8,689 bases of DNA, taken from NCBI GenBank assembly GCA_964422135.1, contig CAYRAD010000003.1, positions 15,973 through 24,661 on the forward strand, written 5' to 3'. Below the pieces are notes generated by a model. The model saw only the letters and a program-made list of their open reading frames with translations. It had not been told where the DNA came from and ran no database searches. Of this stretch, positions 2,749-8,689 are shown one piece after another. Source of the DNA: an uncultured Vicingus sp. GTDB taxonomy: Bacteria > Bacteroidota > Bacteroidia > Flavobacteriales_E > Vicingaceae. The position numbers and the translations under genes were made by a program. Position 1 is the first letter of the stretch. Every line of letters starts with the position of its first letter.

Positions 2749-3132
2749 ATGAAAGTATTATTAAGTAAACCAGGATTAGACGGACATGATGTAGGTGTTA
2801 AAGTACTTGCTCACGGTTTAATTGAAGCTGGATATGAAGTTGTTTATACAGGATTAAGAAAATCTATTGAAGATATTGTTCGAATGGCAATAGAAAATAA
2901 AGTAGATACCATTGGTCTTTCTATTCTCTCAGGAACACATTTAGTGTTAGCTCAAAAGATGAAAGAAGTAATGGATGAAAATAAGTTAAATATACCTTGG
3001 TTTGTTGGAGGAAATATTCCAGCACAGGATGTGGAGAAATTAGAAGCGATTGGTGCTTCAAAAGCATTTCCAACAAGTACAAAGGTGGATGAAGTTGTAG
3101 AATATTTTAATACTGTTATGATAAAAAATTAG
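2749..3132 (+). CDS. Coenzyme-B12-binding small subunit of a split acyl-CoA mutase
   Basis: The DxHxxG base-off/His-on motif is present as LDGHDVG (2779-2796). The SxL motif is in GLSILSG and the GG motif in FVGGNIP. The length (127 aa) fits a flavodoxin-like fold, and the overall pattern KPGLDGHDxGxKV...GYEVVYTGLRxSxEDIV matches methylmalonyl-CoA-mutase C-terminal domains and IcmB/HcmB-like small subunits. Confidence 0.92.
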   Translation: MKVLLSKPGLDGHDVGVKVLAHGLIEAGYEVVYTGLRKSIEDIVRMAIENKVDTIGLSILSGTHLVLAQKMKEVMDENKLNIPWFVGGNIPAQDVEKLEAIGASKAFPTSTKVDEVVEYFNTVMIKN

Positions 3133-3227: not shown

Positions 3228-4856
3228 ATGAGTACAACAAAAAATAAAACAAAGATTACAGCCGAAGATTTAGGTGTTAAAAAAGTTCACCTTGAATCAG
3301 GTATTGAAGTAGATCCTATTTATACGGCCGCTAATGTGGAAAATTCTAATAGCAAACACGAAATGCCCGGAGAATATCCTTTTACAAGAGGAATCCATAA
3401 TACGATGTATCGTAAAAGACCTTTTACCATTCGTCAGTATGCGGGGTTTGCCTCTCCTGAAGAAACCAATGAACGTTTTCAGTTTTTAATTGCCAACGGA
3501 CAATCAGGTTTAAATGTGGCCTTTGATTTACCTACTCAATGTGGATTGGATTCCGATGATCCAAGAGCTATGGGTGAAGTTGGTAGGGTTGGGATGACAG
3601 TAGATACATTAGATGATTTTGAAATTGCCTTTAAAAATATTGATTTAGATAAAATTACCGTTTCATTAACCATTAATGGCTCTGCAATTATTGCAATTGC
3701 CATGTATGTAGCTATGGCAGAAAAAGCAGGGTACGATATTAGTAAGTTAAGAGGAACAGCTCAAAATGATATTTTAAAAGAATTTATTGGTCGTGGAACC
3801 TGGATTTTTCCAGTTGATAAATCAGTAAAATTGGTTGTTGATACCATAGAATATTGTGCACAACATGTACCTAAATATAGTCCGGTTAGTGTTTGCGGAT
3901 ATCACATCAGAGAAAGTGGTGCTAACCCAATACAAGAAATGGCATATGCCTTTTGTATTGCAAAAGCTTATACTGATGGTGCATTAAGCAGAGGAATTGA
4001 CATTGATGATTTTGCATCTAGATTATCGTTTAACTTCGATATTTATGGAAATCTATTTGAACAAATTGCTAAGTTTAGAGGAGGAAGAAGATTATGGGCA
4101 AAAATAATTAGAGAAGAATATGGAGCTAAAAATGATAAATCATGTTGGTTAAGAATGATTGCCGGTGGTGGTGGAGGTGGATTAACCAAAGAACAACCAG
4201 AAAATAACATAATAAGAAGTGCCTATTATGCATTGATTAGTGCGTTATCAGGAACACAAACTATGGCTTTATGCAGCTATGATGAAGCCTACACTATTCC
4301 AACAGAACATTCTGCAGAAATCTCTTTAAGAACCATGCAAATAATGATTCATGAAATGGGAATTTGTGATACTGTTGACCCTTTAGGAGGTTCTTATTAT
4401 GTAGAATCGTTGACCGATACTTTTGAAGAGAAGATTAAGGAAGAAATGAAAACGGTAGATGAGTGGGGAGGAATTGTAAATGCAGTAGCAACTGGAAAAA
4501 TTCAAGAATCTGTTTCTAAGCAAGCATATACCAGAGAGATGGGAATGCAAGCAGGAGATGTAGATAAAGTTGGAGTAAACATTTTTACAAGAGAAGAAGA
4601 AAGTAAAGAAGTAGAATTTCATCCATACAATCAAGAGGCTGCTGACAAACAAGTTGAGAAGTTAAAACGAATTAAAGCTTCTAGAAACAATGATTTAGTA
4701 AAACAAAAACTGGATGCAATTAGAAAGGATGCTGAGGAAGATAAAAACCTAATGCCTTCAATAATAGAAGCAGTAAAAGAATATGCAACAGTTGGAGAGA
4801 TAGTACAAGTGATGAAAGATGTTTATGGTGAATTTGAAGAGCCAATTTTTTTTTAA
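3228..4856 (+). CDS. Acyl-CoA mutase large (substrate-binding TIM-barrel) subunit, methylmalonyl-CoA mutase family, divergent
   Basis: YPFTRGIHNTMYRKRPFTIRQYAGF, GLNVAFDLPTQ, GTAQNDILKEFIGRGTWIFP, GYHIRESGA, NNIIRSAYYAL and SYDEAYTIPTE align with MCM-family large subunits, most like the split archaeal type. The carboxylate-contacting pair of MCM is retained: the Tyr89 equivalent is Y71 (tat 3438-3440) and the Arg207 equivalent is R189 (cgt 3792-3794). YH (Y225-H226) is also retained. The normally conserved RxHxQT(S/A)GxSLT segment reads RMIAGGGGGGLT (4149-4187). Confidence 0.92.
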   Translation: MSTTKNKTKITAEDLGVKKVHLESGIEVDPIYTAANVENSNSKHEMPGEYPFTRGIHNTMYRKRPFTIRQYAGFASPEETNERFQFLIANGQSGLNVAFDLPTQCGLDSDDPRAMGEVGRVGMTVDTLDDFEIAFKNIDLDKITVSLTINGSAIIAIAMYVAMAEKAGYDISKLRGTAQNDILKEFIGRGTWIFPVDKSVKLVVDTIEYCAQHVPKYSPVSVCGYHIRESGANPIQEMAYAFCIAKAYTDGALSRGIDIDDFASRLSFNFDIYGNLFEQIAKFRGGRRLWAKIIREEYGAKNDKSCWLRMIAGGGGGGLTKEQPENNIIRSAYYALISALSGTQTMALCSYDEAYTIPTEHSAEISLRTMQIMIHEMGICDTVDPLGGSYYVESLTDTFEEKIKEEMKTVDEWGGIVNAVATGKIQESVSKQAYTREMGMQAGDVDKVGVNIFTREEESKEVEFHPYNQEAADKQVEKLKRIKASRNNDLVKQKLDAIRKDAEEDKNLMPSIIEAVKEYATVGEIVQVMKDVYGEFEEPIFF

Positions 4857-4922: not shown

Positions 4923-6098
4923 ATGACAAAACAAAAAACCATATTAGCTCTCGAGCAAGCATTAACGTTACCTTATGCAACAGAACGTTTTGCTCAGTTA
5001 GGTTGGAGGGTAATTCGTATAGAAACTTCTGGTAAACCCGGACAAAAAAGTCCTGGTGACCCAAATAGATATATTGGTGAAGATACTGGTGTGGATGATT
5101 TGCATGCTTATTTTATGGCTCCTAATTTAGGAAAGGAAGCCATAACTTTAAACTTAAAAGATACCAATGATCAACAGGTGCTAAAGCAGATCATCAAAGA
5201 ATTGGAAGTAGATGTGTTTATGTGTAATACACTTCCTAAACGTTACCAACAATTTGGAATTGATTACGATATTTTAAAAGAAGCGAATCCTGCATTGATA
5301 TGGTGTGGAATTTCTGCTTTCGGACCTGATTATCCTGATAGAGCTGGTTATGATCCAGCATTACAAGCCATGTTAGGTTATATGCATTTAACAGGAGAAC
5401 CAGATAGAGATCCTATGCTTTGTGGTTTGCCACTAATAGATTTAAAAGCTGGTGACGAAGCTTTTGCCCAAGTTCTCTTAGCAATGTTAGAACAAAAAGA
5501 AACAGGAAAAGGAAAACGAATTGATATTTCTATGGCACAATGTGCTACTTCGTGGTTAATTACAGCTTTACCTCAAACCCAGTTTGCTGAAGATGTTTCT
5601 AAATTATTTACAAGGAGTGGAAATGAACACAGAAGTTTTGTGCCATCTAACTGCTACCCTACAAAAGATGGCTATGTGTATTTGGCTGTTGGTAGTGATT
5701 CGCAATGGCAAAAAGTAACGGAGATTGAAGGTTTTGAGCATTGTGCTAAAGAGAATAGAACAACAAACAATGGAAGAAAATTAGATAAAGAGAACGTTTA
5801 TGCGGATATCCGAAAAGGCTTGGAAAATTATACAACAACTGAATTTATTGAAGTCTGTTTATCTCTTGGTTTAGCTGTTGCTCCAGTTAACGATGTAAAA
5901 CAAGTTGGAGAATTAGATTTCATTAAAAAGCTGATGGTAAAAACAGTATTGCCAAATGGTGAGGAGGTGATGTTATTTCCAGCACCAATGGATACGGATT
6001 ATCTAAAAGAAAGAAACAATGTAATGAGTTTGCCTCCACGATTAGGAGAGCACAACGATAAAGTGTTTAAAGAAGCAGGGATAATTGATCAAGATTAA
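4923..6098 (+). CDS. Family III CoA-transferase (CaiB/BaiF/AMACR superfamily)
   Basis: The N-terminal ILALEQALTLPYATERFAQLGWRVIRIE...GDPNR corresponds to the VLDLSxxxAGPxAxxxLADLGAxVIKVE...GDxxR motif. The central GISAFGPDYPDRAGYDPALQAMLGYMHLTGEPDRDP...IDLKAGDEAF contains the conserved Asp-x3-Gly position of the catalytic aspartate. The length (391 aa) is typical. The stop overlaps the next start (TAATG, 6096-6100). Confidence 0.9.
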   Translation: MTKQKTILALEQALTLPYATERFAQLGWRVIRIETSGKPGQKSPGDPNRYIGEDTGVDDLHAYFMAPNLGKEAITLNLKDTNDQQVLKQIIKELEVDVFMCNTLPKRYQQFGIDYDILKEANPALIWCGISAFGPDYPDRAGYDPALQAMLGYMHLTGEPDRDPMLCGLPLIDLKAGDEAFAQVLLAMLEQKETGKGKRIDISMAQCATSWLITALPQTQFAEDVSKLFTRSGNEHRSFVPSNCYPTKDGYVYLAVGSDSQWQKVTEIEGFEHCAKENRTTNNGRKLDKENVYADIRKGLENYTTTEFIEVCLSLGLAVAPVNDVKQVGELDFIKKLMVKTVLPNGEEVMLFPAPMDTDYLKERNNVMSLPPRLGEHNDKVFKEAGIIDQD

Positions 6099-8689
6099 TG
6101 GAAAACAAAGTAGTTGACATATTAACTTCTTATTCCACTCCTCACAAAGTGAGTGCAATTGGTAACGAAGCTATTGCTAGAGGTGCTATTGAGGCTGGAG
6201 TTAATGGTGTTTTCTCCTATCCAGGCACACCATCTACTGAGATTTCAGAAATCTTTAACCTAGTTAGTAATCATCAGATTGCTGAGAATGTAGAGGATGC
6301 TACTTATTTTGAATACAGCATCAACGAGAAAATTGCTTTAGAAAAAGCCATTGCCTTTTCAATAGGAAATAAAAGTGCTTTGTGTGTGATGAAAAATGTG
6401 GGAATGAATGTTGCTTCCGACCCATTAATGTCTATCACTTATCAAACCATTATTGCACCATTAGTCATTATCGTTTGTGATGATCCTGGTTGTCACTCTA
6501 GTTCTAACGAGCAAGATTCTAGGTATTGGGGAAATATGGCTTCAGTGCCAGTTTTTAACCCTGCTACTCCAAAGGATGCTTACGAAATGACAAAGCAAGC
6601 ATTTAAGCTTTCAGCAGAATTGAGATTACCCGTTATTGTAAGAACAACCACTCGTGTTTCACATACTAGAGGAATGTTAGCGTACAATGAAATAAATACA
6701 GATAACAGAGAAGCCCATTTTGATAGAATGCCTGAGCACATTAATATTCCAGCTCGTACAGCAGCAGCTCATCAAAAATTACTCAATAAATTACACAGCG
6801 AAACAGTTGAACCTTTCTTCAAGCAATTCAATAGAATAATATTGAATAACAAGGGTAAATTAGGAATAATCAGTAGTGGAGTTGCAACAACTTATCTGTT
6901 AGAAATCATCAAACGAAACGAATTAGAAAATCAAGTTCAGCTATTAGATTTAGGTTTAATCTTTCCTTTTCCAGAACAAGATGTATTAACATTTTTACAA
7001 AAAGGAGTTGAAAAAGTGATGGTGGTTGAAGAATTAGATCCCATTATTGAAAATGCTGTTAGAAATAGTGTTCAAAAAAATAATCTGAACTGTCAGATTG
7101 TAGGAAAACAAGAAAGCAGTTTAAGTACTACAGGGGAATTTACTTTAGGTCAAATAGATAAAGCCATAGCGAATTTCTTTGAAATAGAAACAGTAGGAAA
7201 AGAAGGATTGAATGATGTTGCAGCTTATGATGAGAACTTACCTCCACGACCACCGGCTTTATGCTCAGGTTGTCCACACCGAGCAAGTTATTATGCATTA
7301 AAACTAATTGTTCCTCAGAAAAATTCACTTTCAGGAGAGGGAGTTCATGATACTATATTATGTGGAGATATTGGTTGCTCAGGATTGGGAGCCTTGCCAC
7401 CATTAAAAATGATTGATACCATTAACCATATGGGAATGAGCATTTCCATGGCTCAGGGACTTTCTCAAGCATTAAATACTAATTCTCCCCCTTTAGGAGA
7501 GATGTCCGAAGGACAGAAGGGGACTAAAGTGGTAGCTATGTTGGGTGATGGCACTTTTTTTCACTCTGGAATATCCTCTTTATTGAATGCGGTCTATACC
7601 AAAACTAATATGTTGGTCATTATTTTTGATAATAGAACCATCGGAATGACGGGGCATCAGGATCATCCCGGGGCTACTCACCAAGACAAATATCACGAAA
7701 TTGAAATTGAGCCTTTAGTGAAAGGAATGGGGGTGGAATTTGTAGAAACACTGATGCCTTTCGATATGAAAGATACCTATAAGAAAGTGGAAGACGCAAT
7801 GGCTCAAGAAGGTGTTTCAGTTTTAGTCTCAAAAGCACCATGTGTTTTCTTGCCCGATTATATCAACTACACCAAGCAAGATTCAAAAATTATTATTGAC
7901 CATAGCCGGTGCAATACTTGTCATAATCATGCTGATAGTGAAATTATTTGCTCAAAAATGGCAAATTCCAATTCGAGTTTAACTCGGGCTATTGCTAAAA
8001 TTAAAGCCGAGAAAAGAGTAGATTCTAAAGATCAAGCATGCCCGGCAAACATTTGTAACCATGGCTTCTTTAATTCAATTTTAGAAAAAGATTACAAAAC
8101 TGCATTGAATATGGTTAGGGATAAACTGTTGTTTTCACGAACCTGTGGAGATATCTGTCATAGACCATGCGAATTGTTCTCCAATCATGAATCAGATTCT
8201 ACAATTCCAATTAAGCAGTTAAAGAAATTTGTTTCAAACATCGATGAGAATTTTGAAGATTTTTCCACAACATTTTTACAAGTAGAAAATGCAACAAAAA
8301 AAGACAAAAACATAGCAATAATAGGAGCTGGACCTGCCGGATTAAGTGCTGCTTACGATTTAATACGAACAGGATATAAGGTAACCGTTTTTGAGAAAGA
8401 AGCTGAAGCAGGTGGCTTAATTAAGTATGTGATTCCTGATTTTAGAATGGATAAAAAAGGATTTGATTTTGAAGTTGGACAGCTTGCAAAAATGGGTGTT
8501 CAATTTAACTTCAATACTTCGCTTGGAAAAGATATTTATTTGGACGAACTATCGAATCAATATGATGGATTAATCATTGCACTGGGATTAGGAAAATCAA
8601 AAGAACTGGATATTATTAAATCAGTTTCAGATGAACAGAAATTTGATGCGTTGACCTTTCTTATAGCATACAATCACATATCTCCAACT
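6098..8689 (+). CDS. IorA-type TPP-dependent 2-oxoacid oxidoreductase fused to a GltD/NfnB-like Fe-S + FAD/NAD(P)H oxidoreductase module, 3'-partial
   Basis: This ORF is not in the supplied track. I translated frame 2 from ATG 6098 to nt 8689 as 864 codons with no stop. IorA hallmarks are GNEAIARGAIEAGVNGVFSYPGTPSTEI, RPPALCSGCPHR (around 7247-7282) and the TPP motif GDGTFFHSG...IIFDNRTIGMTGHQ (GDG at 7544-7552). From about residue 605 (nt 7910) there are eight Cys in a GltD-like N-terminal arrangement, including ACPANICNHGFF and SRTCGDICHRPCE. A dinucleotide-binding fold follows: NIAIIGAGPAGLSAAYDLIRTGYKVTVFEKEAEAGGLIKYVIPDFRM (from 8309). The ORF continues beyond the window. Confidence 0.87.
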   Translation, partial: MENKVVDILTSYSTPHKVSAIGNEAIARGAIEAGVNGVFSYPGTPSTEISEIFNLVSNHQIAENVEDATYFEYSINEKIALEKAIAFSIGNKSALCVMKNVGMNVASDPLMSITYQTIIAPLVIIVCDDPGCHSSSNEQDSRYWGNMASVPVFNPATPKDAYEMTKQAFKLSAELRLPVIVRTTTRVSHTRGMLAYNEINTDNREAHFDRMPEHINIPARTAAAHQKLLNKLHSETVEPFFKQFNRIILNNKGKLGIISSGVATTYLLEIIKRNELENQVQLLDLGLIFPFPEQDVLTFLQKGVEKVMVVEELDPIIENAVRNSVQKNNLNCQIVGKQESSLSTTGEFTLGQIDKAIANFFEIETVGKEGLNDVAAYDENLPPRPPALCSGCPHRASYYALKLIVPQKNSLSGEGVHDTILCGDIGCSGLGALPPLKMIDTINHMGMSISMAQGLSQALNTNSPPLGEMSEGQKGTKVVAMLGDGTFFHSGISSLLNAVYTKTNMLVIIFDNRTIGMTGHQDHPGATHQDKYHEIEIEPLVKGMGVEFVETLMPFDMKDTYKKVEDAMAQEGVSVLVSKAPCVFLPDYINYTKQDSKIIIDHSRCNTCHNHADSEIICSKMANSNSSLTRAIAKIKAEKRVDSKDQACPANICNHGFFNSILEKDYKTALNMVRDKLLFSRTCGDICHRPCELFSNHESDSTIPIKQLKKFVSNIDENFEDFSTTFLQVENATKKDKNIAIIGAGPAGLSAAYDLIRTGYKVTVFEKEAEAGGLIKYVIPDFRMDKKGFDFEVGQLAKMGVQFNFNTSLGKDIYLDELSNQYDGLIIALGLGKSKELDIIKSVSDEQKFDALTFLIAYNHISPT

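Follow-up and report, generated by a model that had tools for sequence, protein, structure and literature searches.

An IorA-type 2-oxoacid oxidoreductase subunit with an internal NfnB/GltD-like flavoprotein module, encoded in an operon that resembles the anaerobic indoleacetate pathway

The stretch of DNA analyzed here (the window) comprises 8,689 nucleotides (nt) from an uncultured Vicingus sp. (Bacteroidota; assembly GCA_964422135.1, contig CAYRAD010000003.1, positions 15,973 to 24,661 of the forward strand). At its 3' end lie the first 864 codons of an iorA::nfnB-like gene (the fusion gene), in which IorA, the alpha subunit of indolepyruvate oxidoreductase (IOR), is joined to a flavoprotein module of the NfnB/GltD type. 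Translation of frame 2 from position 6098 to position 8689 (plus strand) gave 864 sense codons and zero stops, the stop codon lying beyond the window. At a GC content of 0.35 and a stop probability of 0.080 per codon, a stop-free run of this length has a probability of ~4e-32 of occurring by chance. A preliminary description of the window, made from the sequence and a list of its open reading frames (ORFs), held that this frame was missing from the list solely because the 3' end of the window cuts it, and this is the case. The window protein is 84% identical to P0001, a homologue of 1,121 amino acids (aa), and its N terminus agrees with those of full-length homologues, from which the complete gene is expected to have ~1,120 to 1,135 codons. 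All the motifs quoted in the preliminary description were found in the translation in the order stated. Those in the IorA core are GNEAIARGAIEAGV (aa 22 to 35), YPGTPSTEI (aa 41 to 49), RPPALCSGCPHR (aa 384 to 395), GDGTFFHSG (aa 483 to 491), and DNRTIGMTGHQ (aa 511 to 521); those in the flavoprotein part are IAIIGAGPAGLSAAYDL (aa 739 to 755) and VTVFEKEAEAGGLIKYVIPDFRM (aa 762 to 784).

The IorA core occupies aa 1 to 585 (positions 6098 to 7852, plus strand) and consists of domains I and II and the thiamine pyrophosphate (TPP) domain VI of the 2-oxoacid:ferredoxin oxidoreductases (OFORs). POR_N and TPP_enzyme_C (aa 424 to 576) both exceeded their Pfam cut-offs, and the NCBIfam family IOR_alpha (TIGR03336) matched aa 20 to 624 over profile positions 5 to 570 of 595 with an E value of 1e-172. 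Both sets of matches bear out the earlier view that residues 1 to about 600 are an IorA-type TPP enzyme. The TPP/Mg motif is present as GDG at aa 483 to 485 and DN at aa 511 and 512, and the cysteines of the TPP-proximal [4Fe-4S] cluster in domain VI (C389, C392, C422/C427, and C582) are kept in 85 to 87 of 87 homologues. When the full-length P0001 was compared by BLASTP with a canonical IorA, P0155, residues 17 to 571 of the latter aligned to residues 22 to 600 of P0001 with 38% identity.

Behind the core lies the Cys-rich N-domain of the flavoprotein module (aa 605 to 692; positions 7910 to 8173, plus strand). In alignments with StnC (8oh5_C), its counterpart is the Fe-S domain, and Pfam Fer4_20 matched aa 646 to 715 with 29.6 bits, versus a cut-off of 25.8. 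Its eight cysteines (605, 608, 618, 648, 653, 683, 687, and 691 in window numbering) and one glutamate (Glu692) are kept in 83 to 85 of ~85 homologues and suffice for two [4Fe-4S] clusters. Next comes the FAD-binding Rossmann fold, with GAGPAGL at aa 743 to 749 (positions 8312 to 8689, plus strand), which is cut by the window end; Pyr_redox_2 and NAD_binding_8 exceeded their Pfam cut-offs at aa 738 to 839. GltD/NfnB-type families of NCBIfam matched aa 640 to 860. The proposal that an Fe-S domain and a first Rossmann fold of the GltD/NfnB/SudA type follow the TPP domain is thus upheld by the profile hidden Markov models (HMMs).

Among proteins of solved structure, the closest relatives of the module by sequence were StnC (8oh5_C, E value of 4e-53), the NfnABC chains 9bov_A and 9n5u_A, NfnB (4ylf_B), and NfnI-L (5jca_L). 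The E values for the NfnB group ranged from 1e-36 to 4e-53, and the remoter relatives GltD and dihydropyrimidine dehydrogenase (DPD) gave 1e-23 to 3e-24 and 1e-18, respectively. An AlphaFold2 model built from an alignment of 105 homologues (pLDDT of 84, pTM of 0.70) superseded one built from 14 sequences, in which the IorA half was poor (pLDDT of 59.7). The TM-scores of the 105-sequence model versus Xfn, NfnI-L, and NfnB were 0.74 to 0.77 when normalized to these targets. With Foldseek, no solved chain spanned the whole protein: the best query-normalized TM-score was 0.34, and the lists were dominated by NfnB and DPD chains.

The remainder of the protein is seen in the homologues. Beyond the point that corresponds to the window end, P0001 has a second Rossmann fold, with GGGNSAID at aa 863 to 870, and then a 2x[4Fe-4S] domain at aa 1063 to 1115. 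The best NCBIfam match of this C-terminal domain alone was the end of IOR_alpha (profile positions 550 to 595 of 595, E value of 5e-12), and by BLASTP the ferredoxin domain of P0155 (residues 554 to 611) aligned to residues 1059 to 1113 of P0001 with 41% identity (E value of 7e-10). The same C-terminal 2x[4Fe-4S] ferredoxin domain, domain V of the OFORs, is present after the insertion in all full-length homologues. Because the ferredoxin domain of IorA resumes after the flavoprotein, the module is, by these alignments, an internal insertion: an Fe-S flavoprotein of ~460 residues between domain VI and domain V. The covalent joining of IorA to an NfnB/GltD-like protein, as first described, therefore stands, but the fusion is not C-terminal.

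Ligands for five [4Fe-4S] clusters are distributed over the three parts of the chain: five Cys in domain VI (one cluster), eight Cys and the Glu in the N-domain (two clusters), and eight Cys in the ferredoxin domain (two clusters). All 22 positions are essentially invariant among 79 to 87 homologues, and the GDG...N (TPP), GxGxxG (FAD), and GGGxxAxD (NAD(P)H) motifs are invariant or nearly so. A 600-aa protein, P0151, was considered as a natural split form consisting of the IorA core alone and was rejected because its gene is cut by a contig end.

A surface loop just before the GDG motif of the TPP domain is a hot spot for insertions. The window protein has ~12 extra residues there, SPPLGEMSEGQKG (aa 461 to 473, positions 7478 to 7516), as does P0013, and P0115 has a long low-complexity insert. 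In P0041 (aa 480 to 627) and P0061, the loop is interrupted in frame by ~148 aa with endonuclease-like DUF559/REase_MTES_1575 domains.

A search of 5.8 billion proteins yielded >120 full-length relatives of 1,107 to 1,170 aa with 53 to 84% identity; when each GTDB species was represented by one genome, relatives were encoded in 218 of the genomes scanned. Nearly all of the best 80 of these 218 are metagenome-assembled genomes (MAGs). Their hosts are Bacteroidota (Flavobacteriales, Saprospiraceae, Chitinophagales, Vicingaceae, and Weeksellaceae), KSB1, Ignavibacteria, Armatimonadetes, Krumholzibacteriia, Hatepunaea, Caldithrix, and Gammaproteobacteria (Arenicellales and Acidiferrobacteraceae); the family as a whole is carried mostly by uncultured Bacteroidota of water, groundwater, and soil. 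When 1.84 billion cluster representatives were searched with HMMER, ~30 to 35 clusters at 50% identity among the best 150 matches shared the long architecture, and canonical IorA proteins of 600 to 650 aa ranked after the long forms, with 36 to 44% identity. The relatives are currently named "FAD-dependent oxidoreductase" by NCBI and "IOR alpha subunit" by JGI, names that the architecture corrects. A full-text literature search found no description of an IorA-NfnB/GltD chimera, in agreement with the preliminary description, whose author knew of no characterized IorA-GltD fusion; most subscription journals were outside the coverage of this search.

The window holds a single, truncated copy of the fusion gene, as might be expected if two genes had been joined by a lost stop or a frameshift during sequencing or assembly. 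For practical purposes we dismiss this explanation. The ORF runs without a break in the 218 species-level genomes, and independent projects have yielded hundreds of metagenome contigs in which it does so too. The window DNA is collinear with three independent Flavobacteriales assemblies (loci L007, L010, and L001) at 75 to 84% nucleotide identity. The junction (~7860 to 8310), where a stop or a frameshift would have had to lie, is spanned by single BLASTN segments against all three, with 75 to 80% nucleotide identity in this region and no frameshift, and the junction residues are invariant. Because the junction is collinear with independent assemblies, an artifact can be excluded.

An iorB-like gene was found ≤600 nt downstream of the fusion gene in 65 of the 71 loci with enough downstream DNA. 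Its product of ~200 aa contains a POR gamma domain (IOR_beta, E value of 2e-39), and the gene often overlaps the fusion gene by 4 nt (positions 13393 to 13396 in locus L004 and 13426 to 13429 in locus L086). A search for a following IorB-like gamma-domain gene had been recommended in the preliminary description, and such a gene is indeed there in the homologous loci, in the DNA that corresponds to that past the window end. This result disagrees with the idea of a self-contained enzyme. Because a separate iorB follows the fusion gene, the holoenzyme is expected to be an alpha-beta complex like canonical IOR. At the other end, the ATG of the fusion gene and the stop codon of the preceding CoA-transferase gene overlap (TAATG, positions 6096 to 6100). 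These stop/start overlaps, between the CoA-transferase and fusion genes and between the fusion gene and iorB, suggest translational coupling along the operon.

To map the operon, we searched with reference proteins by tblastn and reconstructed the gene order, which covered 79 loci. The order is HydB-RidA-ACAD-DUF35-Thl-B12s-MCM-CoAT-FUSION-IorB-Fe2S2-MoCo-FAD-AT, which starts with hydantoinase A/B and in which the DUF35 slot holds an HMGCS-like/DUF35 protein. Optional extras are a second thiolase, an alcohol dehydrogenase, and enoyl-CoA hydratases. This order recurs in Bacteroidota, KSB1, Ignavibacteria, Krumholzibacteriia, and Caldithrix, and a minimal version is found in a Krumholzibacteriia MAG.

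The window contains the portion from the thiolase through the fusion, all on the plus strand; an Rfam search of the window gave no matches. The thiolase, of the SCP-x/BbsB type (positions 1 to 1172; Thiolase_N and Thiolase_C_1), runs off the 5' end and occupies the same position in 36 loci. From base 3 onward its frame is open; the ORF listed at 186 to 1172 is only the portion that follows an internal ATG. The small, B12-binding subunit of a mutase (positions 2749 to 3132; B12-binding and acid_CoA_mut_C; 55 of 79 loci) is a candidate IaaH-like protein, and the large subunit of this B12-dependent acyl-CoA mutase (positions 3228 to 4856; MM_CoA_mutase, E value of 2e-189; 59 of 79 loci) is a candidate IaaG-like protein. 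The family III CoA-transferase (positions 4923 to 6098; CoA_transf_3, E value of 2e-70) is a candidate IaaL-like protein; of the 72 loci in which this could be tested, 58 have its gene immediately before the fusion gene. The mutase large subunit, with 526 bits, scored under the methylmalonyl-CoA mutase equivalog cut-off of 876, and both it and the CoA-transferase scored under the cut-offs of every named equivalog, which fits a distinct specificity.

Among solved structures, the mutase large subunit was nearest to the 2-hydroxyisobutyryl-CoA mutase HcmA (4r3u_A, E value of 9e-145), ahead of the methylmalonyl-CoA mutases. It retains "RQY" and "GRGTW," which we take to be Tyr89 and Arg207 of methylmalonyl-CoA mutase, a mark of dicarboxyl-CoA (succinyl-type) substrates and here a lead only.

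The genes of the operon that lie outside the window add further detail. All 41 of the 41 operon acyl-CoA dehydrogenases (ACADs) have GGG in place of YEG (...TLIGGGTSE...). The hydantoinase (Hydantoinase_A and Hydantoinase_B) is nearest to caprolactamase, a lactam hydrolase. For the Mo enzyme, which has three subunits, the closest relatives are 4-hydroxybenzoyl-CoA reductase, an enzyme that acts on a CoA thioester, and xanthine dehydrogenase (XDH). No AMP-binding gene that could encode an IaaB-type CoA ligase was found in the five Pfam-annotated operons (L001, L004, L005, L006, and L062), and an AMP-ligase motif occurred in just three of the fetched loci, all of them gammaproteobacterial MAGs.

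This gene set matches the iaa pathway of anaerobic indoleacetate degradation. In Aromatoleum, indoleacetyl-CoA is handled by the family III-type CoA-transferase IaaL (phenylsuccinyl-CoA transferase), the B12 mutase IaaGH, and IaaF. The last is a decarboxylating dehydrogenase of benzylmalonyl-CoA in which GGG replaces the catalytic YEG of other ACADs (PMC8360864). Hydantoinase-like 2-oxoindoleacetyl-CoA lactamases have been predicted for the same pathway (PMC5214803), and canonical IOR-type enzymes convert indolepyruvate to indoleacetyl-CoA (bioRxiv 10.64898/2026.01.29.702580). The iaa operon of A. aromaticum and A. evansii and the operon described here have in common a GGG-type ACAD, a hydantoinase-like lactamase, an XDH-family Mo enzyme, and, at the level of gene families, a B12 mutase and a family III CoA-transferase. 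Unlike that of Aromatoleum, the operon described here has no IaaB CoA ligase; entry would be by an aminotransferase and the oxidoreductase, the growth substrate is likely to be tryptophan or indolepyruvate rather than free indoleacetate, and the hosts are mostly uncultured Bacteroidota. A literature search, whose coverage did not extend to the original iaa papers, found no iaa-type operon described in Bacteroidota. The preliminary description spoke of the neighbors of the fusion gene as CoA-dependent enzymes; they are not generic ones but form a fixed iaa-type indoleacetyl-CoA set. Because the neighbors form such a pathway, indolepyruvate is the likely substrate of the oxidoreductase, and the operon looks like an oxygen-independent pathway for the breakdown of tryptophan via indoleacetyl-CoA.

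The electron acceptor was considered from the pyridine nucleotide-binding motif. In NfnB-type proteins, the 2'-phosphate of NADPH is bound by a YRR motif, and an acidic residue at this place is typical of NAD-specific Rossmann folds. Of 81 homologues, 76, including the closest ones, have C-[IVL]-E instead, and YRR or RR is retained only in five deep-branching sequences from outside the Bacteroidota. Because C-x-E stands in for YRR, we hold with moderate confidence that the acceptor in the Bacteroidota clade of the window is probably NAD+ rather than NADP+. For the 2-oxoacid:NAD(P)+ oxidoreductase of the preliminary description, the acceptor is thereby narrowed to a predicted NAD+ in the window's clade.

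Taken together, we think it rather probable that the product of the fusion gene is the alpha subunit of an indolepyruvate oxidoreductase that is linked to NAD(P)+ and forms indoleacetyl-CoA, that it has an NfnB/GltD module built in, and that the gene is part of an iaa-type operon. The data show the architecture, the conservation of the cofactor ligands, the IorB partner, and the makeup of the operon; substrate, direction, the order of the electron path, and the preference for NAD+ are what we infer here. The HisC-family aminotransferase of the operon would turn tryptophan into indolepyruvate. The alpha subunit, together with the CoA-binding gamma domain of IorB, would then convert an arylpyruvate, most likely indolepyruvate, and CoA to indoleacetyl-CoA and CO2, taking the place of the ATP-consuming IaaB CoA ligase of Aromatoleum. 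The electrons would pass from TPP to the [4Fe-4S] cluster of domain VI, on to the two clusters of the ferredoxin domain and the two clusters of the N-domain, and finally via FAD to the pyridine nucleotide, a path proposed as an ordering argument. The enzyme would contain its own ferredoxin, in the form of the IorA ferredoxin domain, and its own ferredoxin:NAD(P)+ reductase, on which that domain would dock. Because this reductase would be hard-wired into the enzyme, a free, soluble, low-potential ferredoxin could be dispensed with, and such carrier-free wiring makes sense in the mostly aerobic or facultative lineages that bear the operon. Downstream, the Mo-hydroxylase would produce 2-oxoindoleacetyl-CoA from indoleacetyl-CoA, and the hydantoinase-like lactamase would open its ring. 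The family III CoA-transferase and the B12 mutase would carry (2-aminophenyl)succinyl-CoA to (2-aminobenzyl)malonyl-CoA, from which the IaaF-type decarboxylating dehydrogenase and the thiolase would form 2-aminobenzoyl-CoA.

Several findings weigh against this reading. The IOR_alpha score of 575.5 bits is under the curated equivalog cut-off of 650.9, a shortfall that we attribute to truncation and insertion, and the IOR_beta score is 136 bits versus a curated cut-off of 206. The operon aminotransferase scores as HisC. The likeness to the iaa pathway was drawn from gene families and the GGG motif; a Mo-hydroxylase in the Aromatoleum iaa cluster is reported to have been described by Ebenau-Jehle et al. 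in 2012. The window stops before the NAD(P)H fold, the ferredoxin domain, and iorB, which are known from homologues only, the closest being 84% identical. The choice of NAD+ over NADP+ leans on one motif. The closest solved relatives of the module bifurcate electrons, and hence a linear wire is not the sole option. Lastly, distant clades with the same architecture (35 to 38% identity) consist of iorA*-iorB pairs outside iaa-like operons, and because of this the architecture is not tied to indolepyruvate.

These distant clades also make the architecture look like a general solution, and they bring us to the possibility that the enzyme has another or a broader substrate. Phenylpyruvate, 4-hydroxyphenylpyruvate, imidazolepyruvate, and branched-chain 2-oxoacids are candidates, and the operon would then degrade a different N-heterocyclic or aromatic compound. 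Characterized IORs take several arylpyruvates (PMC5109826), and HisC-family aminotransferases have a broad aromatic specificity. We nevertheless consider this unlikely, if deserving of attention: the combination of Mo-hydroxylase, lactamase-type hydantoinase, B12 mutase, CoA-transferase, and GGG-type ACAD is specific to the indoleacetyl-CoA route, and the steps after ring opening need an ortho-aminophenyl-succinyl skeleton. The opposite direction of catalysis, in which NAD(P)H would drive an arylpyruvate synthase that carboxylates arylacetyl-CoA for amino acid synthesis or salvage, strikes us as very improbable. OFORs are reversible in principle and an aminotransferase is encoded in the same operon, but NAD(P)H (approximately -320 mV) is too weak for 2-oxoacid synthesis (approximately -500 mV) without bifurcation, and the remainder of the operon (thiolase, ACAD, lactamase, and Mo-hydroxylase) is catabolic.

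The ancestry of the module raises the further question of whether its FAD is a true bifurcating or confurcating center, which would reduce NAD(P)+ by merging low-potential electrons of the 2-oxoacid with high-potential ones, or else split the electrons of NAD(P)H between two acceptors, with the IaaF-type dehydrogenase or the Mo-hydroxylase as a candidate high-potential donor. Among solved structures, the module comes nearest to the bifurcating subunits of NfnAB, NfnABC, and StnABC, and the Cys3-Glu-type ligand pattern C-x3-C-x3-C-E is conserved. Furthermore, the partner that re-oxidizes IaaF has been stated to be unknown, with confurcation named as a hypothetical route (PMC8360864). Even so, the same fold and ligands occur in the nonbifurcating GltD, DPD, and Xfn, and no NfnA-like partner (FAD_binding_6/NAD_binding_1, [2Fe-2S]) or electron-transferring flavoprotein (ETF) gene was found in the same five annotated operons. 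The oxidation of a 2-oxoacid to give NAD(P)H is already exergonic, which makes coupling unnecessary, and the Mo-hydroxylase has a FAD subunit of its own. We judge a bifurcating or confurcating FAD to be improbable, and lower still we place the specific case in which the FAD in IorA pairs the electrons of indolepyruvate with those of the IaaF-type dehydrogenase to yield NAD(P)H. If that case were true, a confurcating IorA would represent a bifurcating enzyme of a new class, with a 2-oxoacid oxidoreductase as its scaffold.

The linear, NAD(P)+-linked indolepyruvate oxidoreductase that we favor has parts in common with several known systems. It shares with IorAB of the Pyrococcus furiosus and Methanobacterium type (TIGR03336/TIGR03334) the I-II-VI core, the TPP motif, the domain VI cysteines, the C-terminal 2x[4Fe-4S] domain, and a separate downstream IorB. 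It differs from canonical IorA of 600 to 650 aa (~38 to 44% identity) in the insert of ~460 aa, the sub-cut-off HMM scores, and a predicted acceptor of NAD(P)+ instead of free ferredoxin. The fused IorA-IorB family (PRK13030/PRK13029, ~1,170 aa) has a similar length and the same IorA-type core, but the match is limited to aa 123 to 529 of the window protein (E value of 7e-34), and IorB is a separate gene here. With NfnB, NfnI-L, Xfn, StnC, and the NfnABC large subunit, the module has in common the two-cluster N-domain and the Rossmann folds for FAD and for NAD(P)H. Its remoter kin are GltD, SudA, and the N-terminal half of DPD. In contrast to the NfnB group, the fusion is without an NfnA-type partner, its first cluster motif has an insert of ~29 residues, C671 (P0001 numbering) stands in for the cysteine of E-x-x-C, and C-x-E stands in for YRR.

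In function, the enzyme is like two OFORs that pass electrons to a pyridine nucleotide by means of an added flavoprotein, the pyruvate:NADP+ oxidoreductase (PNO) and PadEFGHI. The PNO of Euglena and Cryptosporidium is a PFOR with a C-terminal FMN/FAD module of the cytochrome P450 reductase type, by which ferredoxin is bypassed, whereas IorA here has an internal Fe-S/FAD module of the NfnB type. The phenylglyoxylate:NAD+ oxidoreductase PadEFGHI consists of five separate Por/Kor-type subunits, whereas in the fusion the flavoprotein lies within the IorA chain. PadEFGHI, from Azoarcus/Aromatoleum (Hirsch et al. 1998, cited in PMC5109826), is likewise a 2-oxoacid oxidoreductase that reduces NAD+ via an added FAD component in aromatic amino acid catabolism, a likeness of functional analogy only. 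The parts and the general idea are familiar; the insertion topology, the putative wire of five clusters plus FAD, and the proposed link from tryptophan to indoleacetyl-CoA were not found described in the literature searched.

OFORs are usually regarded as ferredoxin-dependent enzymes of anaerobes. In the family described here, a single polypeptide appears to carry five Fe-S clusters and FAD as a chain. If our reading is true, OFOR chemistry can be used by organisms without a low-potential ferredoxin pool, and tryptophan can enter the iaa pathway by an ATP-saving, oxygen-independent route in phyla for which that pathway is not known to have been described. Pathway engineering might then also profit from the fusion as a compact, NAD-linked module for acyl-CoA formation.

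A module of the same kind was seen in another setting. In a deltaproteobacterial MAG, near a distant homologue of the fusion, a gene on the minus strand (L086, positions 15278 to 18664) encodes another large chimera, in which sulfite/nitrite reductase domains (NIR_SIR) are joined to a Fer4_20/Pyr_redox_2/Fer4 module. Because this chimera carries the same module, the NfnB-like module seems to have been plugged into Fe-S enzymes repeatedly.

Two further genes of the window lie between the thiolase and mutase genes, both on the plus strand. The first is a 330-aa ORF at positions 1175 to 2167, which had no match in Pfam, NCBIfam, PHROGs, PADLOC, or the PDB sequences. It begins with a signal peptide-like segment, and its sequence is strand rich and aromatic rich, which suggests an outer membrane beta-barrel. 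ORFs of this kind occupy the same operon position in loci L010, L018, L022, and L082, and hence a role as a channel for uptake of the pathway substrate is conceivable. The other is an ORF6N/anti-repressor-like gene at positions 2189 to 2707 (Pfam ORF6N, E value of 2e-28; PHROG anti-repressor; PADLOC candidate defense family PDC-S05, E value of 3e-54), which sits inside the catabolic operon and is inserted likewise in locus L007. Elsewhere, a small 23S_rRNA_IVP (four-helix-bundle) gene separates the fusion gene from the mutase or CoA-transferase gene (positions 3885 to 4244 in locus L001 and 9581 to 9958 in locus L006). The intergenic slots of the operon hold small, seemingly unrelated genes that differ by lineage.

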